64,000 bases of DNA from Sulfurimonas sp. (GCF_023229105.1 NZ_JALNZY010000001.1:1938-65937); one strand, 5' to 3'; shown: positions 27,103 through 47,104, counted from the first letter of the stretch. Numbers and translations are program-made. Notes: generated by a model from the letters alone, not told the origin.

Positions 27103-28287
27103 ATGAAATATAGCTGGTTTTTTATATTAAAGATAGTAGTTGTCATGCTATCTGTTAGTGTCTTCGCACAAGGAGCTGTTTTAACAGATGCTGAGAAGTT
27201 TTACGGCACAGAACTCAAAGCATCAAAAAAAGTTCAGCACCCTCCTTTTGAGTGGGGTGACTGTACTGTTTGTCATACGGACGCAAAGGGGGAAGGAGCT
27301 CTTATTATGGATCCTCCTGAGTTATGTGCTATGTGTCATGAAGCAAAAGACACCAAAGCATTTATTCATGGTCCGGTAGCAGCAGGTGCATGTACAGCTT
27401 GCCATAATCCACATGAATCAGATAATGCAAAATTATTAACAGCATCTAGTATAAATGAGCTTTGTGTTTCATGTCATCAAGCTAAAGATGAGTTTATGCG
27501 CAATACCGCAAATATCCACTCGCCAGTAAAAGATCAGTGTATTAATTGCCATGACCCCCATACCGAGGATCATCAGTATCAATTAAAAGCCGATGGTAAA
27601 AAAGATCTCTGTGTTATGTGCCATGTCGATAAAGAAGTTTGGACAAGCACGGTAACAGATAAGCACGGCGCACTTGATAGACCTAGAAAGTGTTTAGAGT
27701 GTCATGATGCGCATGGCTCAGAGGTGCCGATGAATTTGATTAAAAATACTTCAAAAGAGCTCTGTTTGTCATGTCACAGCGAATCATTAACAAGAGATGA
27801 AGACGGTAGTAAGATTCTAAATATAGGAAAACATCTTGAAAATAATCCTGACTGGCATGGTCCTATTCTCTGGGGAGATTGTGCAGCATGTCACAATCCG
27901 CATGGTTCAAATAACTTAAGAATGTTGAACAAGCCGTTCCCTAGAACTTTCTATGATAAGTTTGAAGAGGATAACTATATCTGTTTTCAGTGCCATGAAA
28001 AAGAGAAGATTATGGATGCCAATACAACAACAGCGACAAATTTTAGAAACGGCTCAAACAATATGCACTTTGTACATGTAAACAAAGAAAAAGGTCGCTC
28101 TTGCCGAGCTTGTCATGATTTCCATGGTACAAAAGAGTATCCGCACCACTTAAGAGCAAAGACGAAGTTTGGTAAGATAAACTTCCCTATTCGTTTCATT
28201 GAAACGGAAAACGGCGGTTCATGTGCACCTGCCTGCCACGCTCGCCGTCACTATGACAGAGCAACGCCAAAAGTTAACCTTAAATAA
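27103..28287 (+). CDS. periplasmic dodecaheme cytochrome c (paired-CXXCH type; 11 CXXCH + CX3CH)
   Basis: Signal peptide; repeating H-x-P...CXXCH-xPH...L-CXXCH units; terminal CAPACH. Confidence 0.92.
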   Translation: MKYSWFFILKIVVVMLSVSVFAQGAVLTDAEKFYGTELKASKKVQHPPFEWGDCTVCHTDAKGEGALIMDPPELCAMCHEAKDTKAFIHGPVAAGACTACHNPHESDNAKLLTASSINELCVSCHQAKDEFMRNTANIHSPVKDQCINCHDPHTEDHQYQLKADGKKDLCVMCHVDKEVWTSTVTDKHGALDRPRKCLECHDAHGSEVPMNLIKNTSKELCLSCHSESLTRDEDGSKILNIGKHLENNPDWHGPILWGDCAACHNPHGSNNLRMLNKPFPRTFYDKFEEDNYICFQCHEKEKIMDANTTTATNFRNGSNNMHFVHVNKEKGRSCRACHDFHGTKEYPHHLRAKTKFGKINFPIRFIETENGGSCAPACHARRHYDRATPKVNLK

Positions 28288-28288
28288 A

Positions 28289-29314
28289 ATGAGTTTTAAA
28301 TTTATATACTTATTTCTCTTGTTATTTACCACAATAAGTGGTAATGCGCAAGAGATATCTTCCTTAATACTTCAGCCTCAAGATAAAACACGTTATATTG
28401 GAGAGAGCAGCACTTTTGTAATAAATGCTACGCTTAAAGAGGCAGACTATATAGTTATAGAGCAAAGTGATATAACTACGACATTAGAAATAAAACCGCA
28501 AAAAGATACATACTGTAAAACAATTAACCTCAATCCGGGAGAAAACACTGTTTTTGTTACTCTTTACAAGGATGCAAAACCTATAGGTAAAAGTAGTAGA
28601 GTGCTCTATTTTCTTTCAGAACTTTTTGAGGGAGTTGATGAATATGAGCTTGATGAGTACAAGATAAGATTTTTTCATCAGGATGCCAAAGAGAAGAAGT
28701 GTGCCTCATGTCACAATATGACATCAAATATTCCAACGAATAATGAAGCTCTTGAAGATGTGACAAAAACCACATGTTATGAGTGTCACAACAGCATGAT
28801 AAGTACAAAAAACACACATGCTCCAGCTGCCAACTGGCTTTGCATCAATTGCCATAATGGAAAATTTGGCGAGTATAATATGCAAGATAAAGGCGCTTCA
28901 AAATACTTAGTAGCAGATCCAGTGGCAAAAACTTGTGCAGAGTGTCACGAGGATGTTAAAGAGTGGGAAGAGAGTAAATTTGGACATGGTCCTGTGAATG
29001 ATGGAAGATGTGAGAGGTGTCATAACCCACACGGCTCAGACAACGAGTTTTTTCTAAGAAAATCAATCTGGGAGTTGTGCACTACATGTCATGCTGAAAA
29101 ATCAAATGGACAACATGTTACATCAGCTATAGGTTTTGGTGCACCGAATAAAAGTGGAGGACATCCAACAAGAGATAGAGAAGACCCTGCACGTCCCGGA
29201 AGAGAACTTACTTGTAGCGGATGCCATAACCCGCACGGTTCCGGCGGAATATCTCTGTTAAGAATGAAGGGAACTATGCCTTATGGCGTATGTCAAAGAT
29301 GCCACAAGAAGTAA
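28289..29314 (+). CDS. octaheme cytochrome c with N-terminal non-heme beta-sandwich-like domain
   Basis: Start moved to MSFKFIY at 28289; signal peptide; ~130-aa heme-free region, then 8 CXXCH. Confidence 0.9.
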   Translation: MSFKFIYLFLLLFTTISGNAQEISSLILQPQDKTRYIGESSTFVINATLKEADYIVIEQSDITTTLEIKPQKDTYCKTINLNPGENTVFVTLYKDAKPIGKSSRVLYFLSELFEGVDEYELDEYKIRFFHQDAKEKKCASCHNMTSNIPTNNEALEDVTKTTCYECHNSMISTKNTHAPAANWLCINCHNGKFGEYNMQDKGASKYLVADPVAKTCAECHEDVKEWEESKFGHGPVNDGRCERCHNPHGSDNEFFLRKSIWELCTTCHAEKSNGQHVTSAIGFGAPNKSGGHPTRDREDPARPGRELTCSGCHNPHGSGGISLLRMKGTMPYGVCQRCHKK

Positions 29315-29330
29315 ACAAACAGTTATTCTT

Positions 29331-29347
29331 ATCACAAAAATATCACA
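29331..29347 (+). promoter_or_regulatory. ATCACA-N5-ATCACA direct repeat, candidate regulator site
   Basis: ATCACAAAAATATCACA; a near-identical copy (16/17) lies at 44265-44281. Confidence 0.5.
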
Positions 29348-29386
29348 ATATTACAATTTATCTATATTTTTGTTACAAAAAGTGAC

Positions 29387-29400
29387 TTGATATAAGTCAA
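29387..29400. promoter_or_regulatory. Crp/Fnr-family box (TTGA-N6-TCAA)
   Basis: TTGATATAAGTCAA: 9/10 match to the FNR consensus TTGAT-N4-ATCAA; upstream of the OmcE-like gene. Confidence 0.55.
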
Positions 29401-29505
29401 AGTGATTTTTTTCTCTCTTTTAATCATGTTTAATTTAGATTTAGTTATACTTGTACTAGAAAATAGTATTACAAAAAATTATATACTATTAGGGAAGGAG
29501 ACAAA

Positions 29506-30249
29506 ATGATTAGTAATAAAATCAAAGTTATTCTGTTTGCATCAATGTTAGGTGCCTCGTCTGTATTTGCTGGTCCGATTAGTGGTAGTCCGCATGACTT
29601 GTCCGCTCTTGCTGGATTAGATAGTTCAACTGCTGACAATGGGGAGATATGTGTATATTGTCATACGCCTCACGCGGCAAACTCCGCTTTTACAGGTGCG
29701 CCTTTGTGGAACAAGGCTACTCCAGCGGGAACATTTGATATGTATGGTGCAACAATAGCAGGAACAAATACAGAGGCAGCTCCGGCGAGTCCGTCTTTAG
29801 CATGCCTTAGCTGTCATGATGGTGTTAGTGCGATAGACTCTATTGTAAATGCACCCGGTTCTGGTATGAAATCAGTAACTGGATCTAAAGACATAGTAAC
29901 TGGTCTTGCGACTCAGTATGGCGGGAACATAGGTGGTCCGCTAAATGCTACGACTACGGGTAACCCTGATTTGACAAACGATCATCCTGTATCGATTATA
30001 TATACAGAGGGTAAAGCTGGACTTAGAGCGACTACTGTAAATCTTGCAACACTAGGTGATAATATTGCTTGGTTGGGTGCTACAACTATTGGAGATTTGC
30101 TTCGCGGGCCTACAAATGATCAAGTAGAGTGCGGTAGTTGTCATGATCCACATAACGGTGGAAATGATCAAGCAACAGCTACTGAAGTTAACTTCCTTCG
30201 CCATACAAATAAAAACAGCTACCTTTGTCTAGGTTGCCACAATAAATAA
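29506..30249 (+). CDS. secreted tetraheme cytochrome c, OmcE-like (candidate nanowire subunit)
   Basis: Sec signal (SVFA/G); PHDLS, EICVYCHTPH, PLWN, CLSCHDG, DLTNDHPV, VECGSCHDPH, FLR, LCLGCH. This order matches my recollection of Geobacter OmcE. Confidence 0.8.
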   Translation: MISNKIKVILFASMLGASSVFAGPISGSPHDLSALAGLDSSTADNGEICVYCHTPHAANSAFTGAPLWNKATPAGTFDMYGATIAGTNTEAAPASPSLACLSCHDGVSAIDSIVNAPGSGMKSVTGSKDIVTGLATQYGGNIGGPLNATTTGNPDLTNDHPVSIIYTEGKAGLRATTVNLATLGDNIAWLGATTIGDLLRGPTNDQVECGSCHDPHNGGNDQATATEVNFLRHTNKNSYLCLGCHNK

Positions 30250-30253
30250 TATT

Positions 30254-30280
30254 CAGTAGAGAGGTTCTTCCTCCCTGCTG
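30254..30280 (+). terminator. imperfect hairpin terminator after the OmcE-like gene
   Basis: CAGTAGAGAGG-ttctt-CCTCCCTGCTG followed by a T-rich tract. Confidence 0.55.
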
Positions 30281-30306
30281 TCTTCATTTTCCCATTATAC
30301 TTTCTT

Positions 30307-30315: not shown

Positions 30316-30347
30316 GCAATATTATTATATCAAAGTCGGAGTCTTAT

Positions 30348-31451
30348 ATGAAAATCATCTTTCTTTCAATTCAAGTTATTATAATGTTCTTTTTTCAGGC
30401 TTGTGCTACCAAAGAGGTTGAAGTAGAAAAAATTATAACATTTCCTCAATATCCACAAACACCAAAAATACTGTATCTAACCACATACAGAGGTGGTGCA
30501 AAAGAGGATAAGTCAAGTGCATTAGATGTTTTTTTGGGTGAAAAAAAGAGTGAAAAAAAGGTTTCAAACATCATCAAGCCATATGGTGTTGGACTTCAAG
30601 ATGGCAAAGTGTATGTTGCGGATACAGGTTCGGATGCAGTATTTGTAATAGATGAGAATAGCAGAGAGCTTAAGTTTATAGGCAACGGTATAGTAGGCAG
30701 ACTTGCTGCACCTGTTGGAATTGCATTTGATAGAGATAAAAATTTATATGTAAGTGATTCGCGTGAGAGAAAAATAAACGGCTATAACTTAAACGGAGAG
30801 CTAAATTTTGTTCTTGGGGATAGAATGGAGTTTGCAAGCCCTACGGGAATTGCAGTAGATAAAAAACAGCACAGACTTTATGTTGTAGATACAAAAGCGC
30901 ATCAGTTTAAAGCTTACGATATTGCTACAAAAGAGCTTCTGTATAGCGTAGGTCAAAGAGGCACAAATGATGCAGAGTTTAACTTTCCTACAAACATTGC
31001 AGTAGATCAAAGAAATGGAAATATAGTAGTTGTAGATACACAAAACTTTCGAGTACAAATATTTGATAAAGATGGAAAATTTATAAGCAAGTTTGGAAAT
31101 ATCGGCAATAAGCCGGGAACATTTGCAAGACCAAAAGGTGTCGGTATTGACAGTGAGGGTAACATTTATATAGCTGATAGCGCGTTTAACAATATTCAGA
31201 TATTTGATGAGAAGGGAAGCGCACTGCTTATGTTTTTTGGCGGTGGGGGTTATGGTCCAACTCAGTTTCGTCTAGTTACTGGAGTATATATAGATGAGAA
31301 TGACAAGATAATAGTTGCTGATGGTTTTAGCGGAAGAGTACAGACATTTCAGTATATTAGTGAGAAATGGAAAGAGAACAATCCTCAGAAATATAGTGAA
31401 ATTACTGCTCCTCCAAATCTAGAATCGGATAATAAAACAGAAAAAAAGTAG
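30348..31451 (+). CDS. NHL-repeat (6-bladed beta-propeller) lipoprotein
   Basis: Lipobox FQAC; repeats PYGVG/PVGIA/PTGIA/PTNIA/PKGVG...YVADT, FNFP, NFRVQIFD. Confidence 0.92.
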   Translation: MKIIFLSIQVIIMFFFQACATKEVEVEKIITFPQYPQTPKILYLTTYRGGAKEDKSSALDVFLGEKKSEKKVSNIIKPYGVGLQDGKVYVADTGSDAVFVIDENSRELKFIGNGIVGRLAAPVGIAFDRDKNLYVSDSRERKINGYNLNGELNFVLGDRMEFASPTGIAVDKKQHRLYVVDTKAHQFKAYDIATKELLYSVGQRGTNDAEFNFPTNIAVDQRNGNIVVVDTQNFRVQIFDKDGKFISKFGNIGNKPGTFARPKGVGIDSEGNIYIADSAFNNIQIFDEKGSALLMFFGGGGYGPTQFRLVTGVYIDENDKIIVADGFSGRVQTFQYISEKWKENNPQKYSEITAPPNLESDNKTEKK

Positions 31452-31460: not shown

Positions 31461-32396
31461 TTGAATAAAGTATTTTTAATAGCCGTTTTAGGCACATTTT
31501 TATACGCAGGTAAGATACTGTTACCGGAATCTACGGTTGCAGTTGTCAATGGTACTGCTATTTCAGTAGATGAGAGAGACAAAGAGGTTGGAAAACTGCT
31601 TCCAAAAGCATATTTTCACTCAAGCGTAAATGCTGAAAAGCTAAAAGATTTACAAGAAAAAGCACTGGAAACATTGATTGAAAAAACACTGCTTTATACT
31701 TATGCTGTTTCAAAAAATATAAAAACAAGTGAGAGTGAAGTAGATGAAGTTATGACAAATCTCGCTGCAACTTACGGCTCTAAAGAAAAGCTAGAAGAAG
31801 CAGTGAAGCAGCTTGGATTTACAAAAGAGACTTTTAGAGAAGTTGTTAAAAAAGATGAAACACTAAAAAAACTTTATAAAAAAGAGATAAAGAGTGATAT
31901 TAGCGATAGAGCGCTAAGAGACTATTATGAAAAAAATAGCTACAAATTTAAAGAACCTGAAAAGATAAGAGTTAGACTGATACATATAAGAAACAACCCT
32001 GAAGATCCAGAAGGCAAAAGCAAAGCAAAAAAGAGAGTTGATGATGCAATGGCAGAGATAAAAAAGGGGACTCCTTTTGCAGATGTAGCGGCAAAATACT
32101 CTACTGCTATGAGCCGCATTAAAGGCGGAGATATGGGATTCCTTCATAGAGGAAGACTGGAAGTAGCGGTTGAAGATGCTGCTTTTTCTATGGAAATTGG
32201 GCAAACAAGTGAGATTATAGAACAAGATATCGGTTTTTTTATAGTAAAAGTGGAAGATAAAGCCCTATCAAATCAGCTCTCTTTTGAAGAAGTCAAAGAT
32301 GGACTTAAGAAGGATTTAAAAACCAAAGAAGAAGATGAAAAAAAAGCAAAACTACTTGAGAGGCTAATGCTAAATTCGGTGATTGTGAAACAATAG
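31461..32396 (+). CDS. periplasmic parvulin-type peptidyl-prolyl isomerase / SurA-PrsA-like chaperone
   Basis: VAVVNGTAIS SurA-N pattern; VRLIHI, FADVAAKYS, KGGDMGF rotamase motifs. Confidence 0.9.
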   Translation: MNKVFLIAVLGTFLYAGKILLPESTVAVVNGTAISVDERDKEVGKLLPKAYFHSSVNAEKLKDLQEKALETLIEKTLLYTYAVSKNIKTSESEVDEVMTNLAATYGSKEKLEEAVKQLGFTKETFREVVKKDETLKKLYKKEIKSDISDRALRDYYEKNSYKFKEPEKIRVRLIHIRNNPEDPEGKSKAKKRVDDAMAEIKKGTPFADVAAKYSTAMSRIKGGDMGFLHRGRLEVAVEDAAFSMEIGQTSEIIEQDIGFFIVKVEDKALSNQLSFEEVKDGLKKDLKTKEEDEKKAKLLERLMLNSVIVKQ

Positions 32397-32397
32397 C

Positions 32398-34179
32398 GTG
32401 TTACAAAAAAAAACCCTATGTTGCCTCTGTCTAACCCTTGCATTAGTCTCAAGGCTTGCGGCAAATGATTATCCCGATGGTGGACTTTATGGAAGCCTAA
32501 ATTATCTATATATTCAAGATGATTATACCAATAGCGGAAGAGAGAACTCAAAAGAGAACTTTTTACAAGAGTATAAAATGGGGTACAAAGGCAATATCTA
32601 TAGTCCACGTCTGCTTGACTACTCACTTGAAGGTCTTATTAGATTTGATACAGAAAAACTTCAAAGAGACAAAGAGACATCAAAGCGTAAAACTTACGGG
32701 GAAGATTATAAAGCATATCTTGATTTTATCAAAGACACAAAAGTTCCTTTTACTATTTATGCGAATAAAACACAAAGACCGGTAAATACGGTTTATAGCG
32801 CTTACTCAACAAATTATCAGTATGAGACAAGCGGCGAGGGAGTAACCGGTTCTTTAAAATTTGAACCGTATATGGTTACATATGGGGCTACTACAATAAA
32901 AACAGTGGCAGAGTTCAGCGACAGACTGCAAGATTCTCGAACTACAACTTACAGTAGTTCATTTCGTTATAACAAAGAAAAGCATAACGTACAAGCAAAC
33001 TATTCACACTCCATATTGGAAAATGAACAAAACTATATTAACGATGAAATTACGAGCATTAATCAAGTCAAAGATATATTTGCAATATCTCATAACTGGA
33101 AAGCTTCTGATGCTTTTAATATAGATTCTACTGCATCATATGAAAATGATGAATATTATGCAAGAGAGACTATGGATGCAGGCGTGAATCTAAACTATAG
33201 ACCAAAAAATGCCGACTATGACACTTACTTATCGTTTCTTGGAACGACAATGGAGTATGGAGATTTAACAGGGGGTGAAAAATATATTTTTGACTCGTTA
33301 AACATTAATCAAGGAGTTAACTACAGGGTAACTCCGAGTATTACTTTATCAGAGTCTGCCATGGCATATTTATATGATAGCACGACCTCAAGTGGCAGCA
33401 ATTCGTATGTTAATTTAGATGCTACTCACAACTATGCAACTACTATATTTTCAGATGTTTCTTTTACTCTTGTAAGCAGGGTGGGTGTGCAAAAAAATGA
33501 TTCTATAGTAAAAACCATCTTAGATGCAAACTCAACCACTACAAAAACAAGTACAGAGAGATATAACATTCAGCTCACCGCTAGAGGGAGAAAAAATTTC
33601 CCTTCTATCAATTCAAATTTAAATATAGACAGTGGCTACTATCACTCTTTGTACTCTACAAAAAGAGAAGAGCAGAGATATAACTTTGGGCTCTATTTTT
33701 TGTCAAAAATTTTTAGTATCGTAAATAATAATATTACTGCCAGATACAGTCATACAAATACTATCCCTGCGCCTTCTTTAATTACGCCAGAAGGAAGAAG
33801 CAGCTATTCAACGACAAATATAATGGAGTCTTTAGATTTTCATTTTAGACTTGGCGCAAGAGGACGAATCAGATTTAGAGTTGGAGCAGAATATGTAAAC
33901 ACAAAAACTGATAATGAAACCAACAGCCGTGTTGACCCAAGAGCAGAGATGAATATGAACTATAGGTTTTTCAATAACTGGATGTTTGATGCTTCCGCAA
34001 GGATAAACGAAGCATACAATACTCTTGAGCATTCAGGAAATGCAAATTTGACATTCAAAGCAGGAAAAACTAGTTTTTTAATGGGATATCAGTATAATAA
34101 GAGTGAGATAGAGAGTGTTTTAAACACAATACAAAATGAGCGTTCAACTTTTAGAGTACAGTTGACGCGGACATTTTAA
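32398..34179 (+). CDS. large outer-membrane beta-barrel protein (porin-cytochrome conduit or secretion pore candidate)
   Basis: GTG start, signal peptide, Tyr/Asn/Ser-rich alternating strands throughout, C-terminal FRVQLTRTF beta-signal, no CXXCH. Confidence 0.8.
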   Translation: MLQKKTLCCLCLTLALVSRLAANDYPDGGLYGSLNYLYIQDDYTNSGRENSKENFLQEYKMGYKGNIYSPRLLDYSLEGLIRFDTEKLQRDKETSKRKTYGEDYKAYLDFIKDTKVPFTIYANKTQRPVNTVYSAYSTNYQYETSGEGVTGSLKFEPYMVTYGATTIKTVAEFSDRLQDSRTTTYSSSFRYNKEKHNVQANYSHSILENEQNYINDEITSINQVKDIFAISHNWKASDAFNIDSTASYENDEYYARETMDAGVNLNYRPKNADYDTYLSFLGTTMEYGDLTGGEKYIFDSLNINQGVNYRVTPSITLSESAMAYLYDSTTSSGSNSYVNLDATHNYATTIFSDVSFTLVSRVGVQKNDSIVKTILDANSTTTKTSTERYNIQLTARGRKNFPSINSNLNIDSGYYHSLYSTKREEQRYNFGLYFLSKIFSIVNNNITARYSHTNTIPAPSLITPEGRSSYSTTNIMESLDFHFRLGARGRIRFRVGAEYVNTKTDNETNSRVDPRAEMNMNYRFFNNWMFDASARINEAYNTLEHSGNANLTFKAGKTSFLMGYQYNKSEIESVLNTIQNERSTFRVQLTRTF

Positions 34180-34192: not shown

Positions 34193-35203
34193 ATGAAAAT
34201 TTTTTTATATATGCTGGTTTTTATAGGGGGCTTCAATACTTTTTATGCTCAAGAGAGAGTAAAATTGGTATGGCCACCGCCGCCGGATGAGGCCAAAATA
34301 GAGTTTGTCTCTTCTATCCATAATTCTGATGATTTAGGGATAAAAAAAGGTTTTTTTTCAAAGGCTTTTGATTTTTTATTCGGTAAAGAGGAGAGAAGCC
34401 TCCGAGCTCCGTTTGGTGTTCACGCTCATGAAGAGAGAGTTTATACGACCGATATAGCTACAAAATCACTCTATATATTTGATAAAAAAAAGAATAATAT
34501 GATTACGATTAGCGGTTCTAAAAAGGAGCAGTTTTTATATCCTATAGATATTACGACTGATGAGAGTGGAAATATTTATGTCTCAGACTCCGTAAGAGCT
34601 AAAATATATGTCTTTGAAAAAGATGGAGATTACAAATACTCTATAGAGCCAAAAATGCTGCAAAGACCGGTTGGAATTGCTATAAGCCCAGATAAAAAAC
34701 TCTATATCGTAGATGCGCTCTCAAGCCAGATACACGTAACTTCTCTAAAAGGGGACTACTTAGGATCTATCGGCAAAAACGGCACAGGCGATGGAGAGTT
34801 TAACAGACCTACCTTTATGGATATCGGTCATGATGGAAAGCTTTATGTGTCTGACTCTATGAATCATCGTGTGCAGATACTCGGTAGTGATGGAGGGTTT
34901 ATAGATAAATTTGGTAAGTTAGGGCAAGAGATAGGGAACTTTGGTAGTCCTAGGGGTATCTCGATAGATAGTGATGAGAATATTTATGTATGTGATACGA
35001 TGTTTAACAATATACAGATTTTTAATCAAAAAAAAGAGCTATTAATGGTGCTTGGTCGTTATGGAGATAAAAGAGGCGAATTTGCCCTAGCAGAAGATAT
35101 TTCAATAACAAAAGATAATATAATATATGTAACAGATACCAATAATAACCGCATTCAACTCTTTAAGCTTATTAACTCAGCACAGATAAGGAGTTTAAAA
35201 TGA
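34193..35203 (+). CDS. second NHL-repeat beta-propeller protein
   Basis: Signal peptide; PFGV/PIDI/PVGI/RPT/PRGI repeats, GEFNRP, NHRVQI, NNRIQLF. Confidence 0.92.
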   Translation: MKIFLYMLVFIGGFNTFYAQERVKLVWPPPPDEAKIEFVSSIHNSDDLGIKKGFFSKAFDFLFGKEERSLRAPFGVHAHEERVYTTDIATKSLYIFDKKKNNMITISGSKKEQFLYPIDITTDESGNIYVSDSVRAKIYVFEKDGDYKYSIEPKMLQRPVGIAISPDKKLYIVDALSSQIHVTSLKGDYLGSIGKNGTGDGEFNRPTFMDIGHDGKLYVSDSMNHRVQILGSDGGFIDKFGKLGQEIGNFGSPRGISIDSDENIYVCDTMFNNIQIFNQKKELLMVLGRYGDKRGEFALAEDISITKDNIIYVTDTNNNRIQLFKLINSAQIRSLK

Positions 35204-37260
35204 AATCTTTAATAATTACTTTATTGGTTTTTTTGTTTTTTTCAACCATTGAGTCGGCAGCCTCGATTGTAAATACAAAGCATAACCTCTCGGTAACAAG
35301 TGCTGTAGGAAACATAAAAGCTACGAGTGAAACTGAGGTTTGCGTCTTTTGTCATATACCGCATTTCTCACAGACTATTGGAAAGCCGCTTTGGAACAGA
35401 AGTATGCCCACAACAGACTATGTTATGTATGATAGTGATTATCTAAGACGGATGGGTTACCCTTCAATTGCCTCAGACCTTGGCTCGGCAAATGATACTC
35501 CGGGGGCACTCTCTCGTCAATGTCTTAGTTGTCATGATGGAACGATTGCCGTCGGTGCAGTCTCAAAACTTAGACGTGATTATGATGGCTCCTCAACAAT
35601 AGATATGAGCGGTGATGCCCCCGATGGAACCATACCCGATACAGCAGTAGGATTTATAGGCGCGGATCTCTCAAATCATCATCCCGTAGGAGTTGTCTAT
35701 GACCCGACAATAAGTAAAACCTTTGGCAATGGCGGAATCCGCTCAATGGAGCTAAAAGCAATACCAGACGCTCCTATAAAACTTTATGAGTATGCAGGAT
35801 ACAGCGGAAAATATGTAGAGTGTTCCTCCTGCCATAATCCGCATAAAGAGAATAGTAAGTTTTTACACTATGACAGCGGGGCAAACCATGGGCAAAATTT
35901 TGTAGGCACATGTACATCTTGTCATGAAAAAACGGATTGGACAGGGAGTGTGCACCAAAATCCTCCAGGTAATCCAACATATACCGATGCAGAACTTATT
36001 GCAAGATATGGAACTGGTGCTGTAAAAGAGCTTGGGTGTGCAAATTGTCATGTGCCTCACAACGGGGAGGGTGTAGGATACTTAAATAGACAGGTTAACG
36101 AGCAGACATGTTTTCAAGGAGCTGCCTCTACTGAGGGTGGTGCTGCTTGTCATGGTGTCGGCGGGGCAAAAGATATAAAGTCTATTTTAAGCAGATTATA
36201 TACTCATCCTGTCTTGGCGGAGGATAATATTGTGGGAACTCAGCATACAAATCTTGATACGCTCTATGGAACAGGCAATCTTGACCCGCTTGCTATAAAA
36301 GGGATGGACTGGGAAACAAATAAACATGCTGTTTGTATGGATTGTCACAATCCGCACCGTGCACGTGCCGGCACACATATAGTTGACGGTTCATGGTATG
36401 GCGTGCCCGGAGGATCTACAAATCTTGTCTCAAATGTACTTAAGGGAGTCTCCGGTATTGAGCCAACATGGCCGCCAGAATGGACACAGCCGACTACATT
36501 TACAACCATGGAGAGTTCAGAGAAGGAGTACCAAATCTGTTTTAAATGTCACTCATATTGGGGAATAGGTCTTGTAGCTAATAAATATGCTCCTTCAACT
36601 TATACTTCAGCAGGCGGTACTTTGCTTACGGATGTGGCATGGGAGATGAATATAAACAATAAATCTGGACACCCTGTTGTTATAAATTCTCTTGGAAGAA
36701 GTGGTGCTTATGCTCCAAAGGAGCTTGATACAATTCAGCTGCTTACGCCGTGGAAAGAGAATCCAGGGCTTAACACTATGTACTGTTCTGATTGTCACGG
36801 AGCCGATAATGAGCTTGGAGGCGACCCAAAAGGTCCTCATGGCTCAAACTTAAAGTATATTCTTAAAGGTGTAAATCAACACTGGCCGATGAAGCCAGAT
36901 GGTATTACTCTTTACACTATGGATGATTTGAAAAACAATACTGCCCAAGAGCTATTTTGCGCAAACTGCCATGACCCTAAGGAGCCACATACTACATGGT
37001 GGAATAAGATGGCAAACAAAGGTTACCAATGCGTTCAGTGCCATGTAGCAATACCGCATGGTTCTTCTGTTTCTAGACTGGTTGGATATCAGGGTTGGCC
37101 GGCGCCATATAATTATCAAGGGAATAAGTTGACTATGATTGGATATCGAAAAAATGCTTACACGCTTGTTGACCCGCGGGATGCATATGCTACGCATGCA
37201 GGTGGTGGCAGCTGTCATACCACAAATGCCGGTGGTTATGACTTGAACTTGATGCCGTAG
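35200..37260 (+). CDS. secreted multiheme cytochrome c: OmcE-like tetraheme module plus C-terminal extension (10 CXXCH + CX12CH)
   Basis: Signal peptide; SIVNTKHNLS...EVCVFCHIPH...PLWNR...CLSCHDG...DLSNHHPV...VECSSCHNPH...FL...CTSCH, then 7 further sites. Confidence 0.85.
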   Translation: MKSLIITLLVFLFFSTIESAASIVNTKHNLSVTSAVGNIKATSETEVCVFCHIPHFSQTIGKPLWNRSMPTTDYVMYDSDYLRRMGYPSIASDLGSANDTPGALSRQCLSCHDGTIAVGAVSKLRRDYDGSSTIDMSGDAPDGTIPDTAVGFIGADLSNHHPVGVVYDPTISKTFGNGGIRSMELKAIPDAPIKLYEYAGYSGKYVECSSCHNPHKENSKFLHYDSGANHGQNFVGTCTSCHEKTDWTGSVHQNPPGNPTYTDAELIARYGTGAVKELGCANCHVPHNGEGVGYLNRQVNEQTCFQGAASTEGGAACHGVGGAKDIKSILSRLYTHPVLAEDNIVGTQHTNLDTLYGTGNLDPLAIKGMDWETNKHAVCMDCHNPHRARAGTHIVDGSWYGVPGGSTNLVSNVLKGVSGIEPTWPPEWTQPTTFTTMESSEKEYQICFKCHSYWGIGLVANKYAPSTYTSAGGTLLTDVAWEMNINNKSGHPVVINSLGRSGAYAPKELDTIQLLTPWKENPGLNTMYCSDCHGADNELGGDPKGPHGSNLKYILKGVNQHWPMKPDGITLYTMDDLKNNTAQELFCANCHDPKEPHTTWWNKMANKGYQCVQCHVAIPHGSSVSRLVGYQGWPAPYNYQGNKLTMIGYRKNAYTLVDPRDAYATHAGGGSCHTTNAGGYDLNLMP

Positions 37261-37267: not shown

Positions 37268-37807
37268 ATGAGATTTTTTTTATTAATATTACTATTTTTA
37301 GTGCAGCTTTGTTTTGCTAGCTCAAATGTAAATGATGATAAACGCATAAAAGATTCGTTGTTGAAATATAACTATGGAATCATCAAGATGACAAATAGCG
37401 GCAATACAAAACTTTTAAAAGATATGCTCTCTCAAGAGGTATATTTTAAGTTGATGGTTTGGGCAGACTCTTGGAAGTTCAGCAATCTTGCCATGGTTGC
37501 GCAGATAAATGACTTAAGGTTCTCTCCGATTGCTTACAATGAGAATAATGCCACCATAAGAACTATGGAGAACTGGACATTTGGGTATGCTGACTTGGTA
37601 AAGAGAGATTATGCATTAAAACCTATGACAATCTTTTATAAGATGAAATATACGCTAAAAAAACATCATGGGGAGTGGATAATAGTTGCTGTTGAAAATC
37701 TTCAAGAGGAGGTTTTTACGGAGCCAAATACGCATGAGACATCTTTGCTAGAAAAAAAAGAGAAGCCAAAAGAGGAGGCTGTGCAAGGAAAAATAGAGAC
37801 ACATTAA
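37268..37807 (+). CDS. exported hypothetical protein, NTF2/SnoaL-like fold suspected
   Basis: Signal peptide; ATIRTMENWTFGY...YKMKYTLKKHHGEWIIVAV pattern. Confidence 0.55.
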   Translation: MRFFLLILLFLVQLCFASSNVNDDKRIKDSLLKYNYGIIKMTNSGNTKLLKDMLSQEVYFKLMVWADSWKFSNLAMVAQINDLRFSPIAYNENNATIRTMENWTFGYADLVKRDYALKPMTIFYKMKYTLKKHHGEWIIVAVENLQEEVFTEPNTHETSLLEKKEKPKEEAVQGKIETH

Positions 37808-40900: not shown

Positions 40901-41061
40901 TGAACTATTATCTCTCGGGTATGCACTCTTATGCCGCAGGAGATCCTGTTCCGGTACCAGAGTGGATATACTATGTTATCTCTGTAATAGTTTTAGTTAT
41001 TATCATGGCATCGTTAAATCGTGAAAAATTGGTAAAAGTAAAACCGATAATCACAAAGTAG
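37903..41061 (+). CDS. ccsA: fused system II cytochrome c synthase (CcsBA; NrfI/CcsA1/CcsA2 type)
   Basis: ResB-like N-half (FHVGF..ILIG, YPGS..PSSY); CcsA C-half with WANESWGRYWGWDPKETW (WWD domain) and GMHSYA. Confidence 0.95.
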   Translation: MTFIKKVWSFLISMKLMAVLILLFGAASGVGTFIENDYGVNTSWAVIYASRWFEAIQILLGISILGNIFRYKMIQKKKIPVLIFHVGFIVILIGSGITRYWGYEGIMNIREGATEHRMLSSDAFLQIEAKKGPKEFIKHKVVYVSELGGRDFSESLYIDDKELKVTYKGFIAKAVKTVVEDPNGKPIAGLVIMTPQGPEKYFISSGESFDVGPLAVFFDKEVSVNKPVIRLMSEGDKISFVANVPIGWTKMADRTEGVYEAGVKYAFDAGELYNVRGVQVVAKEVYERGAVKVVDADEYQKTAKQNLNMDKNPLSALVVDVTYNGETREVAMMGKGKRYQGFTELLNMDDIELTLEWGAKILELPFALKLNKFVMLKYPGSMSPSSYESYITLLDNKNSIKEDYKIYMNNVLDYGGYLFFQSSYDKDEKGTVLSVNHDPGKWPTYIGYIMLGIGMFLNLLNPNSYFGKLARMKYEYKAGVVAAVVAFTTLFGTQPLVASTADAGQIKHVDANHANHYGTLLVQSRDGRIKPLDTMSMEYLNKITAKSSMFGLSHNQIILGMASNPEAWKEVEMIKIFHPKLKKELGIEESKNSFAYSIVFDKFGNYILGPLAEEALRKRPAERGTYEKEIIKVDERVNVAYMVYSGRFMTVFPLKGDQTHKWYYPQEALETFPSEAANEVMALLRSNSLGLSKGLQSGNWSDANKAIDDIKAYQVKINPELVAEDMLIKAELLYNKLQIFERLYPIYLLSGLLLLVLIFIRLAKPALDLKRVVRVILVIFAVAFVVHTFSLGLRWYIAGHAPWSNGYEAMLYISWSIILAGLLFARSSELAVATTGLFSGITLFVAHLSWLDPQITTMVPVLKSYWLTIHVSIITASYGFLGLSTLLGFISLIFYIMLANKSKREQISVNIMESTRISQMSMIVGLSLLTLGNFIGGVWANESWGRYWGWDPKETWTIVTIAVYVFATHMRFIPALKSNFLYNVVSVIAYASVIMTYFGVNYYLSGMHSYAAGDPVPVPEWIYYVISVIVLVIIMASLNREKLVKVKPIITK

Positions 41062-43343: not shown

Positions 43344-43346
43344 CTT

Positions 43347-44090
43347 CTACTCCTCTGGAAGAACCGACTCTTGAATTTCAACTTGCCACTGCTCTTGATC
43401 TAAAATCAGTTTTGCTTCCGAGTTTCCGTTTAGGTAAGCCTCTTTTAAGAGATCCTCTGCCTCTTTTTTATCTTTGGCAACACCGTCGCCTTCAAGATAC
43501 ATTCTGCCAAGCGTATATTGAGCCTCTCCGCAGCTTTGCATTGCGGACTTGCTTAGATACTCTTTTGCTTTTTCTATATCCTTTTTAACTCCTTGCCCAC
43601 TTTTATACATATAGCCCACTTTGTTTTGTGCCAGTGGATAACCTGCATCGGCAACCTGCTTATATAGAGGAAAGGCTTTTGCATAATCCTGCTCTGCACC
43701 GTCACCTTTATAATATAAGTCCGCTAAATGAAGCGCCGATTTTTGATCACCTTTTTTAGCTGCTTTGGAAAACAGAGCGATAGCCTCTTTGTCATTTTGT
43801 TTTACGCCATCACCCTTGTGGTACATAACCGCGAGGTTATAAATAGCTTTTGCATGACCTTGATCTGCTGCTTTTTGGTACAACTTAGCGGCCATGGCAT
43901 GGTCTTTATCGGTAACAATTCCTTGATAATACATACCACCCAATGCAAACTGGCTATTTGCTTCCCCTTTTTCGGCTTTTATTTTTACGGACATAAAAGC
44001 TTTTTTATTCATATCAATCTTCTCTGCAGCAACGGCTGAGTTTAAAATCAGCAAAGAGTGCAGAAGAAGTATAAGCACTGTTTTTTTCAT
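43347..44090 (-). CDS. Sel1-like (SLR/TPR) repeat periplasmic protein
   Basis: Signal peptide; repeated A.QG.A.AQ..LG.MY..G.GV..D units; TGATATAAT promoter on the minus strand at 44128-44136. Confidence 0.92.
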   Translation of the reverse strand: MKKTVLILLLHSLLILNSAVAAEKIDMNKKAFMSVKIKAEKGEANSQFALGGMYYQGIVTDKDHAMAAKLYQKAADQGHAKAIYNLAVMYHKGDGVKQNDKEAIALFSKAAKKGDQKSALHLADLYYKGDGAEQDYAKAFPLYKQVADAGYPLAQNKVGYMYKSGQGVKKDIEKAKEYLSKSAMQSCGEAQYTLGRMYLEGDGVAKDKKEAEDLLKEAYLNGNSEAKLILDQEQWQVEIQESVLPEE

Positions 44091-44264
44091 AGTTATTCCT
44101 CGTAAATTACTTTGTCAGTAAGGGGTTATTATATCAGCAGTAAGTAAATTAATTTCTTAAAAATCGATATGCAGCTTTTTGTTTTGTATAAATAATAATA
44201 ATTATAAATAGAAGGATAATTATATGTTTATATTATATTTACTATTTAATTATTGTATGAAATA

Positions 44265-44281
44265 ATCACAAAAAAATCACA
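44265..44281 (+). promoter_or_regulatory. ATCACA-N5-ATCACA direct repeat, candidate regulator site
   Basis: ATCACAAAAAAATCACA upstream of the NapC/NirT gene; matches 29331-29347 at 16/17. Confidence 0.5.
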
Positions 44282-44378
44282 TTCAAACAAAGTTTATTCT
44301 TTTGCTCTATATTTAGTTTAAATTAATAAAGAAAGGTTAATAATTACAAGAAGTATACATAAAAGGGAAGAGGGAAAA

Positions 44379-45008
44379 GTGCAAAAAGATGATATGAGAA
44401 TAGAAAGAAAGAGAAAATACTCTTTTGGAATAAGGGTTATAATTGCTCTTATAGTAGGTGGAGTAGTTGTAGGGATGGGAACATCTTTTGTTACGGTCAT
44501 TGCAGTAAAGCATACGTCAGACGTAAACTTTTGTGGTTCTTGCCACTCTATGAAGCCTATGGCTGATGCTTATAGAAATAGTGTTCATGGTGGGTACGGT
44601 GATAGCGGTATTATGGCTACTTGTGCGGATTGTCACTTGCCACATGAATCTACTCTTGGTTATATGGTACAGAAGGTTAAGACCGGTATGTGGGATGTGT
44701 GGGTTGAGACTACGCACGATACTTCAAAAATTGATTGGCATGAGCGTCGCAGAGAGCGTCGTAACTGGGTTTATGATAGTGGATGTCTGCATTGTCATGA
44801 AAACTTATTACGCGGTACCCGACCAAATAAAAAGGCATTTACTGCTCATAAAGCCTATTTCTCTGAAAAACTTTTAGTTGAAGGTGAAGATGGGAAAGAG
44901 CGTGCAAAGTGTGTTGATTGTCACAGAAATGTAGGTCACTATCAACTAGAAAAACATCTTCCGCCACCGCCAGTGGAAGTATATAATGAAAATAATAAAA
45001 AGCATTAA
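44379..45008 (+). CDS. NapC/NirT family membrane-bound tetraheme quinol dehydrogenase (CymA/NrfH-like)
   Basis: GTG start; N-terminal TM helix; TSDVNFCGSCHSM, CADCHLPH, CLHCH, CVDCH..VGH. Confidence 0.93.
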   Translation: MQKDDMRIERKRKYSFGIRVIIALIVGGVVVGMGTSFVTVIAVKHTSDVNFCGSCHSMKPMADAYRNSVHGGYGDSGIMATCADCHLPHESTLGYMVQKVKTGMWDVWVETTHDTSKIDWHERRRERRNWVYDSGCLHCHENLLRGTRPNKKAFTAHKAYFSEKLLVEGEDGKERAKCVDCHRNVGHYQLEKHLPPPPVEVYNENNKKH

Positions 45009-45014
45009 GGAGAT

Positions 45015-45539
45015 ATGATGGAACAAAAATATATTAAACCAACTATTATTGTGGGTGTGCTTGTTATCATTATCATTCTGCTTGCTATGTCAAATGCTGG
45101 TGAAAAGTTTGTGCGTTTAGGAAAAATTGGGGAGCAGATTGCAACCAATCTTGCTAATGCAAGTCATGGAGATCCTCGTTCTCTTAAAGAGATGGACAAA
45201 GAACGAATAAAAGCTACTACGGGTAGCTCTCATACCGTAGATGTCAGTGAGTTGCCAAAGGCATTTCTCCCACTCAAAGAGCATGGGCATCCACCTTTTA
45301 CCCTGGGTGCGTGTAACGTATGTCATGCTTCAAGAACAGATAAGCCCGCTGCAATTACGACTCGTACGGTAGCTGAGCTTTGTTACACATGTCATTATCC
45401 AAAAGAGGAAATTGATAAGCGTATGGCTGCACTAGATTGTAATAAGTGTCACAGCCCTCATCACGCAGATAGGGAAAAACTTGTGCGAAATAAAGTTATT
45501 GAAAAAGAGTGTCCAGTAGGTGAATTTCAATCAAACTAA
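45015..45539 (+). CDS. membrane-anchored triheme cytochrome c
   Basis: N-terminal hydrophobic helix; CNVCH, CYTCH, CNKCH; HPPF.LGAC motif shared with the dodecahemes. Confidence 0.85.
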   Translation: MMEQKYIKPTIIVGVLVIIIILLAMSNAGEKFVRLGKIGEQIATNLANASHGDPRSLKEMDKERIKATTGSSHTVDVSELPKAFLPLKEHGHPPFTLGACNVCHASRTDKPAAITTRTVAELCYTCHYPKEEIDKRMAALDCNKCHSPHHADREKLVRNKVIEKECPVGEFQSN

Positions 45540-45583
45540 TAGTTTGATTGAAATTTGGTAGTTAAAAAACACGAGGTATAGTA

Positions 45584-47104
45584 ATGAAACAAAATATGAC
45601 AAAAATAATAATAACAGTGTTGGTATTAGCACTGAGTGTATTCTTATTTCAGTCATATGGTGTTGCTGATAAGCTGAGTCGCTTTGTTACTATAATGGGT
45701 AATATAACAAATAGTCTTAAAAATGCCAAACATGCCTATGAAGAGGTTAATTTTACTATAAGCGATGATGAATTAAAAGATGTCAATATCACTAAACTTG
45801 CCCAAGAGTTTAAAAGTTCTATTGATAAGAAAAAAGAGGCTCTTGTTCTTGCTATAAAAGCACCGCCAGAGATTCAAGTTGATGAGATTAGAGAAGAAGA
45901 GATCCCAACACACACTAAAACACAAACAATAAAAGCAAAAATTGTTAAGATGGAAGATTTACCTGCAAAATTCAAACCGCTTAAGCAGTATCTTCATGAA
46001 CCATTTAAGATGGGAGCATGCCAAATCTGCCATACATCAAAGAATAATAAACCCGGAGAGCTGGTTAAGAAAAATATTTCTGAGATATGTTATGAATGTC
46101 ACAAGACTCGCTACACAAAAAAGTTTGATCATAAACCTGCAAAAGATGGACGATGCATGGACTGTCATGATCCGCATCAGTCAAATACAAAAAAGTTACT
46201 AAAGGCTGAGTCTGTAAATACCCTATGTCTGAAGTGCCATGACCGCAAAAGCACATTCAGTGCAAAAGCAGAAAAGCTGTTTGTCAACATGGACTTGGCG
46301 GTTAAGCATAAGCCTATTGTAGAAAAGAGTTGTTTAGAGTGTCACGATGCACATACGGCAGATCACAAATCACTCCTTTCTCTTGATGCAAAGATGGATT
46401 TATGTTTGGATTGCCATGATACAATTAAAGAAAAAATAACTCATGCAAAGTTTAAACATGGTGGTGTAAATACAAGTGAGAAGCGCTGTTTAGAGTGTCA
46501 TGATCCGCATGCTACAAAACATGTTAAACTGCTTAAAAAAGACCCGGTTGCTACATGTTTAAAGTGCCATGACAAAGAAGTAAAGTCTGATGAAGACGGC
46601 GGAATGCTTATGAATATGAAAAAGCATCTAGACGAAAATCCAAATTGGCACAAACCAATAAAAGATGTTAAAAAAGAGGGAGGATGTTCAGCTTGTCACG
46701 ATCCACACGGTTCAGATAACTTTAGCATTCTAAGAAAATCTTTTACGCAAAACTTTTATGCTGATTTGGCAAATAAAGAGTTTTTTTGTTTTAAGTGTCA
46801 CACAGAGAAAAAAATTACAAAACAGTTTATCACTACTTCACAGGAGCACAATATTACTGCGTTTAGAGACGGCGAGGTAAATCTGCACTACCTACATGTA
46901 AACGATAGAAAAGGGCGTGCATGTAGAGCTTGTCATGATGAACATGCTTCTAAATACAAGCATCTTATAAGGGACTATACCGATTTTAACGGTATAAAAT
47001 TTCCGCTTAGGTTTAAAGAGAGTGCTGAGGGTGGTTCTTGTGCTCCTGCTTGTCATAAAGAGTTTGCTTATGACCGTGTTAATCCAAAAGGGATAGGAAA
47101 GTGA
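45584..47104 (+). CDS. membrane-anchored dodecaheme cytochrome c (11 CXXCH + CX3CH), paralog of 27103-28287
   Basis: N-terminal TM helix and ~110-aa heme-free stalk, then paired-CXXCH units ending GGSCAPACH. Confidence 0.92.
   Translation: MKQNMTKIIITVLVLALSVFLFQSYGVADKLSRFVTIMGNITNSLKNAKHAYEEVNFTISDDELKDVNITKLAQEFKSSIDKKKEALVLAIKAPPEIQVDEIREEEIPTHTKTQTIKAKIVKMEDLPAKFKPLKQYLHEPFKMGACQICHTSKNNKPGELVKKNISEICYECHKTRYTKKFDHKPAKDGRCMDCHDPHQSNTKKLLKAESVNTLCLKCHDRKSTFSAKAEKLFVNMDLAVKHKPIVEKSCLECHDAHTADHKSLLSLDAKMDLCLDCHDTIKEKITHAKFKHGGVNTSEKRCLECHDPHATKHVKLLKKDPVATCLKCHDKEVKSDEDGGMLMNMKKHLDENPNWHKPIKDVKKEGGCSACHDPHGSDNFSILRKSFTQNFYADLANKEFFCFKCHTEKKITKQFITTSQEHNITAFRDGEVNLHYLHVNDRKGRACRACHDEHASKYKHLIRDYTDFNGIKFPLRFKESAEGGSCAPACHKEFAYDRVNPKGIGK

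Follow-up and report, generated by a model that had tools for sequence, protein, structure and literature searches.

Does a bacterium whose cytochromes carry non-standard heme-binding motifs keep a separate enzyme to fill them? A gene cluster of a Sulfurimonas MAG poses this question. Within the window, the 64-kb stretch of DNA analysed here, multiheme cytochromes bearing three odd motifs (CX3CH, CX12CH and a terminal SCH) are encoded together with a fused CcsBA, a System II cytochrome c synthase (Table 1). Weighing the evidence as a whole, we lean modestly toward an affirmative answer: the three motifs would be real, selected heme c sites, and the adjacent CcsBA a working System II synthase from a second lineage, one that travels with the cluster and matures its cytochromes.

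The gene cluster

By motif count the cluster encodes ~73 heme sites, and its gene content is best explained as a porin-cytochrome system for OmcE-type extracellular electron transfer. Protein F, to judge from its sequence, is the inner-membrane entry of the pathway. The 593-aa protein, a putative outer-membrane porin given its location and C-terminal Phe, holds an identical position across all cluster loci and returned no matches in searches of Pfam and NCBIfam. Orthologs of E occur in 8/8 cluster loci and show a weak ARC6-like IMS match; the ortholog of B in locus L081 has 342 aa. Outer-membrane cytochrome clusters of Desulfovibrio ferrophilus likewise encode NHL propellers, a PPIase and a porin (PMC5815863).

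Similarity in sequence and fold marks an OmcE-type tetraheme unit in protein C (full-length; 9yuq is a further match) and in residues 7–223 of D. Both match the Geobacter OmcE nanowire (7TFS) in sequence at E ~1e-22 (5e-22 for D), and the AF2 model of D (pLDDT 82) matches 7tfs in fold (Foldseek E 1.3e-7, TMt 0.65). Unlike Geobacter OmcE, D carries eight further heme sites, two odd ones included.

Table 1. Genes and heme motifs of the cluster, numbered from the first letter of the window.
Feature	Coordinates	Strand	Evidence or remark
A, MtrA-like periplasmic/porin-inserted dodecaheme cytochrome, 394 aa	27103..28287	+	11 CXXCH + C-terminal CX3CH; Pfam Paired_CXXCH_1 1e-52
CAPACH (CX3CH) of A, proposed 12th heme site	28222..28239	+	within conserved G-G-S-C-x-P-x-C-H...Y-D-R module
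B, octaheme cytochrome with N-terminal non-heme domain	28289..29314	+	motif count, domain search
C, OmcE-like tetraheme cytochrome	29506..30249	+	match to OmcE filament 7TFS, E 1.6e-22, full-length
NHL-repeat beta-propeller protein 1	30348..31451	+	Pfam NHL 1.7e-30
SurA/PpiC-type peptidyl-prolyl isomerase	31461..32396	+	Pfam Rotamase_3, SurA_N_3
593-aa protein, putative outer-membrane porin	32398..34179	+	position and C-terminal Phe
NHL-repeat beta-propeller protein 2	34193..35203	+	Pfam NHL 4.9e-28
D, 12-heme-site cytochrome, 686 aa	35200..37260	+	OmcE-like N-terminal tetraheme domain + eight-site extension
CFQGAASTEGGAACH (CX12CH), heme motif of D	36109..36153	+	C304, C317, H318
HAGGGSCH, terminal heme site of D, Cys-less His-bearing allele (H-X5-CH)	37195..37218	+	translation, homolog alignment
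E, small secreted protein	37268..37807	+	lies between D and CcsBA in every cluster locus
Cluster-linked fused CcsBA (System II cytochrome c synthase), 1052 aa	37903..41061	+	Pfam ResB + Cytochrom_C_asm
F, NapC/NirT/NrfH-type tetraheme quinol dehydrogenase	44379..45008	+	NCBIfam NrfH 3e-21 (score below the curated cut-off), napC_nirT 4e-16
H, membrane-anchored A paralog, 506 aa	45584..47104	+	11 CXXCH + CX3CH
CAPACH (CX3CH) of H	47039..47056	+	translation; family conservation
I and J, hepta- and octaheme B paralogs	47101..49043	+	motif count, profile search

Conserved CX3CH and CX12CH sites

The sequence-only reading had located CAPACH in both dodecaheme paralogs and the CX12CH motif CFQGAASTEGGAACH in D, and translating these coordinates confirmed all three. 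Every cysteine of A, D and H lies within a heme-type motif, leaving none spare.

The CX3CH motif is invariant in its family. Across 120 MtrA-like dodecaheme homologs, Nitrospiraceae-type sequences among them, the pattern G-G-x-C-x-P-x-C-H keeps both Cys and the His at spacing 3 in every case, and 117 also keep the proline equivalent to P376 of A. The conserved non-motif His residues of A number twelve, the same as its heme motifs. In the AF2 model of A (pLDDT 93.7) the CX3CH falls in a loop predicted to connect beta-strands, not in a helical turn.

Protein A matches MtrA (6R2Q) in sequence (3e-15), and its model matches 6r2q_A in structure (Foldseek E 6.5e-7, TMt 0.59). Scoring 120.1 bits where the cut-off requires 192.2, and with 11 CXXCH plus CX3CH instead of ten CXXCH, it falls outside the MtrA/DmsE decaheme family TIGR03508; its fold is MtrA-like despite this score. 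Like MtrA/DmsE, A combines a heme-wire fold with repeated doubled-CXXCH units and is accompanied by genes for a putative porin and extracellular cytochromes. Unlike them, it has twelve sites rather than ten and an extra C-terminal beta-module bearing the invariant CX3CH. We infer that in A and H this motif would form a twelfth heme site, in a conserved module added onto the MtrA-like wire. General systems mature CX3CH and CX4CH in other bacteria. A CX3CH is also described in an MtrA branch, at heme 1 and not at the C-terminus as in A (bioRxiv 10.1101/2025.05.29.656830).

Protein D has more than 2,300 homologs and, by translation, contains 10 CXXCH, the CX12CH and the SCH. C304, C317 and H318 of the CX12CH are invariant in 114/114 aligned homologs; the spacing is 12 in 105 of them, 13 in eight and 14 in one. 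Two Cys and the following His, the hallmark of a c-type heme site, are thus fully conserved in both motifs (CX3CH, 120/120; CX12CH, 114/114), and at the sequence level this conservation across homologs excludes chance occurrence. The 24 residues from C280 to C304 in D equal the interval between the paired motifs C97 and C121 in A, and C304 aligns with the first Cys of the second CXXCH in the doubled-CXXCH profile. Because C304 stands where a second CXXCH is expected to start, CX12CH can be read as a CXXCH lengthened by 10 inserted residues. In a doubled unit, the second motif would then carry these as a loop between its cysteines, as in the CX15CH of MccA.

The terminal site of D

The sequence-only reading described the end of D as an orphan GGGSCH at 37210-37218. 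The SCH does lie there, but GGGSCH spans 37201-37218, and the label orphan holds for this protein rather than for its family. In the window's D the 57 residues preceding C672 contain no Cys, so the site here has no upstream partner; about 100 of 114 homologs do have one, 1–12 residues away. Homolog alignment, which had been proposed as a check, reveals a hypervariable C-Xn-CH site (n = 1–12) of which SCH is one allele. The terminal CH itself is kept in 113/114 homologs, which rules out chance for this motif too. All 11 Cys-less alleles that bear the CH, the window's included, place a His 4–6 residues ahead of its Cys (Fisher p = 7e-8 for His in place of the missing Cys).

A lost heme site, one option raised earlier, is unlikely because 11/11 Cys-less alleles retain the CH and systematically put His in place of Cys. 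Together with the near-invariant CH across the family, these alleles argue that the site is under selection. By its sequence it falls into the single-thioether class, an XnCH motif without a partner Cys at a retained site, and its heme is probably held via one thioether. In this allele a His, placed one residue further upstream, stands in for the first Cys, and heme would most likely be attached to C672 by a single thioether, with H673 as proximal ligand. Mitochondrial cytochromes c of Euglenozoa have the single-cysteine motif (A/F)XXCH. Like these, the terminal SCH of D offers one Cys and a His with no partner Cys. Unlike them, the D site is bacterial, periplasmic or extracellular and served by System II, has a conserved His for the lost Cys, and is polymorphic among near-identical proteins.

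A second CcsBA lineage travels with D

The 1052-aa ORF encodes a fused CcsBA (PF05140, 7.7e-22; PF01578, 9.9e-35); its TIGR03144 score of 158.6 lies below a cut-off, 187.6, that was set for unfused CcsB. The WWD region is intact (WGWDPKETW at residue 948), and H85, H870, H969 and H1008 are conserved in 35–36 of 39 aligned CcsBAs.

D, E and CcsBA are adjacent in eight of the nine D loci sampled (window, L081, L082, L083, L087, L088, L089 and L091), which span Sulfurimonas and Nitrosophilus (Campylobacterota) and a Persephonella-type locus (Aquificota). These cluster-linked CcsBAs share 45–89% identity and form one clade (SH-like 99, SH-aLRT 98) apart from a Sulfurimonadaceae clade (97–99). Their sister, or nearest outgroup, is an nrfH-nrfA-linked CcsBA, NrfI by gene context. 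The housekeeping CcsBA lineage has 67–80% mutual identity across the named Sulfurimonas species sampled and adjoins ferrochelatase in L086; the window copy shares just 41% identity with that lineage. Ca. S. marisnigri encodes two System II synthases within this one locus. The window enzyme thus shows two marks of a dedicated isoenzyme, a position beside a substrate cytochrome gene and a phylogeny apart from the general Sulfurimonas lineage, and the sequence evidence supports the view that it is not merely the everyday lyase placed there by accident.

The proposal that this CcsBA serves the odd motifs gains from its linkage to D, its distinct clade and its NrfI-like outgroup. Other observations weigh against it. 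The aligned cluster-type and housekeeping CcsBAs differ at only 2 strictly group-specific positions, with no clear specificity-determining residues. In addition, linkage is not obligatory: on a Nitrospiraceae contig the CX3CH family occurs with a CcsBA absent from the surrounding 10 kb, and there are tandem D paralogs that carry CX12CH but have no lyase nearby. An Aquificota locus (L001) has a cluster-clade CcsBA and no cytochrome genes on its 11.7-kb contig, suggesting that the lineage may be a general lyase in that phylum.

Comparison with Wolinella lyases

The arrangement recalls Wolinella succinogenes, in which fused CcsBA-type synthase genes lie beside multiheme cytochromes with non-standard motifs: CcsA1 with MccA (CX15CH) and NrfI with NrfA (CXXCK). 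CcsA1 and NrfI are distinct from the general CcsA2-type lyase, as the window's clade is apart from the housekeeping lineage. The long Cys-to-Cys spacer of D, 12 residues and 13–14 in a few homologs, resembles that of MccA. The window's clade is sister to an nrfHA-linked NrfI. Unlike theirs, the window substrate is an OmcE-fusion extracellular cytochrome and not a sulfite or nitrite reductase, and the lyase lineage is shared with Aquificota. We infer that the cluster CcsBA would mature the cluster cytochromes. From D gene linkage and the CcsA1/CX15CH and NrfI/CXXCK analogies, heme attachment to D would most likely depend on it, at the CX12CH site at least.

Alternative explanations

The synthase could instead supply extra capacity or co-regulation, with any CcsBA able to serve the terminal site as well as CX3CH and CX12CH. 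We consider this unlikely but a serious contender: it fits the heme load of the cluster, the near absence of a group-specific signature, the CX3CH homologs and D paralogs that have no adjacent CcsBA, and genomic surveys that count CX3CH and CX4CH as ordinary sites (PMC5566968; PMC5815863). Yet the lineage is kept beside D in Campylobacterota and the Aquificota locus across 45–89% identity, and its sister is a known type of motif-specific lyase. Moreover, a housekeeping-type CcsBA was strict about CXXCH in vitro, rejecting Ser substitution of either Cys (PMC8112865), and Wolinella has motif-specific CcsBA isoenzymes, its long-spacer motif needing its own lyase (PMC12285233). It is very unlikely that the enzyme is the organism's only, general-purpose CcsBA, beside the cluster by happenstance. 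Although the window holds a single CcsBA and L001 suggests that in Aquificota the lineage can occur on its own, the eightfold recurrence of D-E-CcsBA adjacency, the other lineage in all named Sulfurimonas species sampled and the window copy's low identity to it speak against this, as does, weakly, a housekeeping-type contig in the source metagenome (depth 9.9, versus 12.1 for the window contig).

The sites themselves also admit other readings. The residue upstream of the terminal CH, mostly Cys and here His, and possibly C304 might be axial ligands, the terminal heme being always single-thioether and the Cys-to-His swap tuning redox potential. An upstream spacing of 1–12, unusual for a fixed two-thioether geometry, the systematic Cys/His interchange and a proposed His-to-Cys distal-ligand swap with motif change in an MtrA branch (bioRxiv 10.1101/2025.05.29.656830) favour this idea, but C304 lies exactly at the first-Cys position of a paired CXXCH, Gly-rich spacers can tolerate variable loop lengths, and contracted or extended two-thioether motifs from CXCK to CX17CH are documented; we rate it as rather improbable. 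That one or more odd motifs are heme-free, as a disulfide, metal site or decaying site, finds its hint in the beta-strand loop predicted for CX3CH. It is most improbable, given Cys, Cys and His invariant over hundreds of diverged sequences, a His always kept right after the second Cys, a distal His count in A that fits 12 hemes, and a terminal CH retained by every Cys-less allele. The cyanobacterial haemoglobin GlbN has a covalent His-vinyl heme link. A long shot, quite doubtful on present evidence, is that C-X4/5-CH and H-X5-CH are interchangeable chemistries among near-identical D proteins, the His forming such a link or accompanying a single-thioether heme, and that the CcsBA clade is a new class of System II lyase for long-spacer (CX12CH), variable-spacer and one-Cys substrates that general CcsBA rejects.

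On the reading we favour, in which the cluster CcsBA matures the cytochromes it travels with, a second heme-attaching enzyme, of a lineage unlike the everyday one of the genus, adjoins cytochromes with odd motifs. It would offer a new and testable case of a substrate-dedicated lyase.

Organization of the locus

The window sequence occurs in groundwater and landfill metagenomes, and its closest homologs carry Sulfurimonas sp. annotation, so the window derives from a MAG. The Geobacter OmcE nanowire (7TFS) is matched by the whole of the tetraheme cytochrome C and by residues 7-223 of the larger cytochrome D (E about 1e-22), and the dodecaheme cytochrome A matches MtrA of the Mtr complex (6R2Q; E 3e-15). 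We compared A and D structurally through AF2 confidence, secondary structure and Foldseek matches. The model of A (pLDDT 93.7) matches the fold of 6R2Q MtrA (E 6.5e-7), and that of D (pLDDT 82) the fold of 7TFS (E 1.3e-7, TMt 0.65). Given OmcE-like C and D and an MtrA-like A, the locus looks, from sequence and models, like a quinol-to-surface electron conduit. In its parts list it is comparable to the Desulfovibrio ferrophilus outer-membrane cytochrome clusters that contain NHL proteins (PMC5815863). Identity with PCC3 of He et al. 2017 was ruled out on composition: PCC3 combines 20-60-heme proteins with a cytochrome b-like inner-membrane protein (PMC5566968); in the present cluster, by contrast, entry is through a NapC/NirT protein and some components are OmcE-like.

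Features of the cytochrome cluster and its surroundings, in window coordinates
Feature	Position	Length (aa)	Motifs or domains	Place
Thioredoxin-like protein	24546-24935 (-)	129	Thioredoxin_7/DsbH-like	2 kb upstream of cluster
Monoheme cytochrome c	26724-27074			first gene of cluster
A	27103-28287	394	11 CXXCH + CX3CH	second
CX3CH of A	28222-28239		CAPACH	
B			octaheme	after A
C			tetraheme	after B
First NHL propeller				between C and isomerase gene
SurA/PpiC-type isomerase				after first NHL propeller
Putative porin		593	no family match	3' of isomerase
Second NHL propeller				directly before D
D	35200-37260	686	10 CXXCH + CX12CH + SCH	
CX12CH of D	36109-36153			
Terminal SCH of D	37210-37218		GGGSCH from 37201	
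E	37268-37807	179	signal peptide	between D and CcsBA
Fused CcsBA	37903-41061	1052	ResB, CcsA	after E
DUF4136 lipoprotein				after CcsBA
Minus-strand unit			285-aa protein, dihaem cytochrome c, Sel1 protein	after DUF4136 lipoprotein
F			NapC/NirT-type tetraheme	second operon
G			triheme	second operon
H (paralog of A)	45584-47104	506	11 CXXCH + CX3CH	second operon
CX3CH of H	47039-47056		CAPACH	
I (paralog of B)	47101-48036			second operon
J (paralog of B)				second operon

The thioredoxin-like gene has an equivalent position in Ca. S. marisnigri; its product could reduce apocytochrome thiols in the periplasm, or be unrelated. In protein I, residues 278-291 (ACSGTSEGGLCIECH) resemble the heme-7 motif of B and J (CSGCH / CTSCH) interrupted by nine inserted residues; a Cys gained with the insert re-forms CXXCH, and the original first Cys, C278, is orphaned. 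Protein I is also without heme 8 of its paralogs.

Conserved noncanonical heme motifs

Translation reproduced all of the unusual motifs that the sequence-only reading had placed in this cluster. Every cysteine of A, H and D falls within a heme motif, which argues against stray cysteines. The claim that CX3CH is conserved in both dodecaheme paralogs was borne out well beyond the window: the spacing is three in 120/120 aligned homologs (40-83% identity, Nitrospiraceae-type sequences included), all of which carry the C-terminal block F-G-x3-[FL]-P-x-x-[YF]-x2-T-x2-G-G-[S]-C-x-P-x-C-H-x4-Y-D-R. In A numbering, G371, G372, C374, C378 and H379 are invariant, and P376 occurs in 117 of 120. Alignment A3 of A holds 12 conserved proximal His, each after a Cys, and 12 others (H46, H89, H104, H139, H153, H188, H204, H252, H267, H322, H325, H341), the number needed by twelve bis-His hemes. 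In the AF2 model, CX3CH falls in a loop of a small sheet of four strands (353-385) with no counterpart in MtrA. The literature list of heme motifs includes CX3CH as an accepted minor form, and one has been described at heme 1 of an MtrA branch (bioRxiv 10.1101/2025.05.29.656830); the C-terminal module of A and H is distinct from that site and not itself described.

The CX12CH motif of D (CFQGAASTEGGAACH) is conserved as well. C304, C317 and H318 are invariant in 114 full-length homologs, the frame T-C-[FY]-Q-G-A...A-x-C-H-G-x-G-G is conserved, and the spacer is 12 residues in 105, 13 in eight and 14 in one. Positions 3-32 of a doubled-CXXCH profile align to residues 274-304, and the 24 residues from C280 to C304 equal the paired-motif distance in A (C97 to C121). 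By this alignment and distance, CX12CH most plausibly corresponds to the second motif of a CXXCH pair, enlarged by a 10-residue loop between the two cysteines. The CX15CH motif of MccA follows an equivalent logic. We found no mention of CX12CH in the literature searched.

A variable, probable terminal heme site in D

The terminal SCH of D had been described as an orphan that may bind heme through a single thioether or have lost it. The query does lack a partner Cys, but most homologs have one 1-12 residues upstream. Terminal CH is kept in 113 of 114 homologs while the would-be partner position is extremely variable: the upstream Cys precedes CH by 4 residues in 40 sequences, 5 in 19, 1 in 17, 2 in nine and up to 12 in the rest. 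Thirteen have no Cys among the 12 preceding residues; in one of these the Cys is 13 residues distant and another no longer has CH, leaving 11, the query included. In all 11 a His stands 4-6 positions ahead of the CH cysteine (H666 in the query, where CH is C672/H673), in the pattern (S/T/N)-H-x-G-G-x-x-C-H, one column before the lost Cys position. Among Cys-bearing sequences only 11 of 101 have a His there (Fisher p = 7e-8). Descent of the Cys-less state from one derived clade was ruled out, as the 13 rows are scattered on the tree and imply at least 10 changes.

A decaying site would not retain CH and repeatedly gain the same His. A lost heme site is thus unlikely, and we conclude from these alignments that the terminal site is probably functional, with the query allele most likely holding heme through one thioether. 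H666 could be a vinyl contact or an axial ligand.

The nearest relative of the query D, P0001, is 85% identical over 661 columns, and its tail ends ...AYSPGCGGGGMCH vs ...AYATHAGGGSCH in the query. The tails of D homologs (last ~45 residues; codons about 37120-37260 in the window) fall into a few recurring types, so this segment behaves as an exchangeable cassette. In the query and P0001-P0040 the types are GWKKK..AYSPxCGGGGMCH, GYRKN..AYATHAGGGxCH and ..SGDxTCDGATCH; they swap among otherwise near-identical proteins, making the C-terminus a mosaic. The pattern suggests recombination or ancient polymorphism at the terminal heme site.

A second CcsBA lineage linked to D

In the window CcsBA, both ResB and CcsA domains are present, together with the conserved His and the WWD region. 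A homolog search with it returned mostly Bacteroidota among the matches listed, with none from the window's own genome or its close relatives among them, and supplied the housekeeping and NrfI comparison sequences. Cluster-linked CcsBAs and one Aquificota MAG copy form a clade (SH-like 99, SH-aLRT 98), separate from a Sulfurimonadaceae clade (support 97-99); in a second tree, L002, L017, L041, L066 and L024 (wrong ORFs, branch length 10) were disregarded, and the clades cited are independent of them. The Sulfurimonadaceae lineage is 67-80% conserved among S. autotrophica, S. paralvinellae, S. aquatica and others, yet the window copy is only 41% identical to it. One housekeeping-type Sulfurimonas copy (L086:6001-11084) has a gene for a 794-aa multiheme-like protein on its upstream side and ferrochelatase (hemH) two genes downstream. 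The cluster clade has as its sister (support 86) a CcsBA from a Halarcobacter MAG, encoded behind nrfH and nrfA (L003:7813-13144; NrfA 712 bits, cut-off 595); since both genes score above curated cut-offs, this CcsBA is NrfI by context.

Synteny points the same way. Nine loci with D homologs were compared, the window included, and the order D-E-CcsBA recurs in the window, L081, L082, L088, L089 and L091. Identity to the window CcsBA is 89% in L081 (Sulfurimonas), 57% in L082 (Nitrosophilus alvini), 54% in L088 and 53% in L089 (Sulfurimonas). The Persephonella-type locus L083 (Aquificota) has a 45% identical CcsBA 1.8 kb off on the opposite strand, and Ca. S. marisnigri (L087, CP054493) has a cluster-type copy 8 kb downstream (65% identity over the part compared). 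Only L092 has no CcsBA near its D paralogs. Clade separation, synteny and low identity to the housekeeping type together make it well supported that the window CcsBA is a second lineage moving with the cytochrome cluster. In Aquificota (L001) a cluster-clade CcsBA may be the general enzyme.

Matching a housekeeping CcsBA to cluster-bearing assemblies traced one contig, which belongs to a different assembly (GCA_050291915.1), and source-metagenome contigs match the housekeeping gene of L006 only over short segments, at 80-90% and from several organisms. A 4.3-kb housekeeping-type contig has a depth of 9.9, close to the 12.1 of the window contig, a hint that the organism also has a housekeeping CcsBA.

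Several loci show further variation. E lies between D and CcsBA in 8/8 cluster loci examined; it has no family match of its own, its orthologs weakly match an ARC6-like IMS domain, and it may be a maturation or assembly accessory. In L087:12623-22145, E and the fused CcsBA are separated by genes for an extra split synthase, with CcsA of 539 aa and ResB of 444 aa, as well as a 129-aa ORF and the gene of an S8 peptidase of 1473 aa, so this locus holds two System II synthases. L092:7851-12073 encodes two tandem D paralogs (678 and 690 aa) with CX12CH and a canonical terminal CXXCH, outside any NHL/PPIase/porin/CcsBA cluster and adjoining a CCP/MauG peroxidase and a cupredoxin. A Bacteroidales MAG (L069) has A-like, NHL and C/D-like cytochrome genes at 7-3350 and, 7 kb downstream (9995-13048), a CcsBA of divergent Bacteroidota type on a long branch shared with L049 and L056. 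On a Nitrospiraceae-type contig (L090:10001-14166), a CX3CH homolog of A with no CcsBA nearby is followed by a TPR protein (weak CcmH/CycH-like match), a thioredoxin-fold/TPR protein and an octaheme cytochrome, which may be a different dedicated maturation set.

Discussion

It had been proposed that the cluster's own CcsBA may serve the unusual motifs. The part of this that is well supported is a non-housekeeping lyase lineage linked to the cluster; motif specificity is plausible by analogy. Arguing for specificity are the Wolinella precedent, where the only experimentally known substrate-specific System II lyases, NrfI and CcsA1, occur (PMC12285233), and the strictness of one housekeeping-type CcsBA in vitro, where it accepts Ser in place of neither Cys (PMC8112865). 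Against obligatory pairing, the CX3CH protein of L090 and the CX12CH proteins of L092 occur without an adjacent lyase. The linkage of CcsBA is to D and not to the CX3CH proteins, which makes the CX12CH motif and the variable terminal site its more likely special substrates. A search for specificity-determining residues found only two positions that strictly separate cluster-type from housekeeping CcsBAs, neither in WWD. For the known specific lyases, engineering the motif alone does not suffice for recognition (PMC12285233).

The locus is a candidate third natural lyase-substrate pairing after NrfI and CcsA1, and by analogy would carry that paradigm into a cluster for extracellular electron transfer. 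New here are the motif spacing, CX12CH, and a naturally occurring Cys/His polymorphism at a probable heme site. As the D family is widespread (>2,300 homologs), CX12CH and the allelic series at the terminal site (spacing 1-12, or first Cys absent) offer a ready panel for probing what CcsBA recognizes. Heme counts based on CXXCH alone would fall short by one or two in A, H and D, and heterologous production of OmcE- and MtrA-type cytochromes from Campylobacterota and Aquificota may need the cognate lyase.
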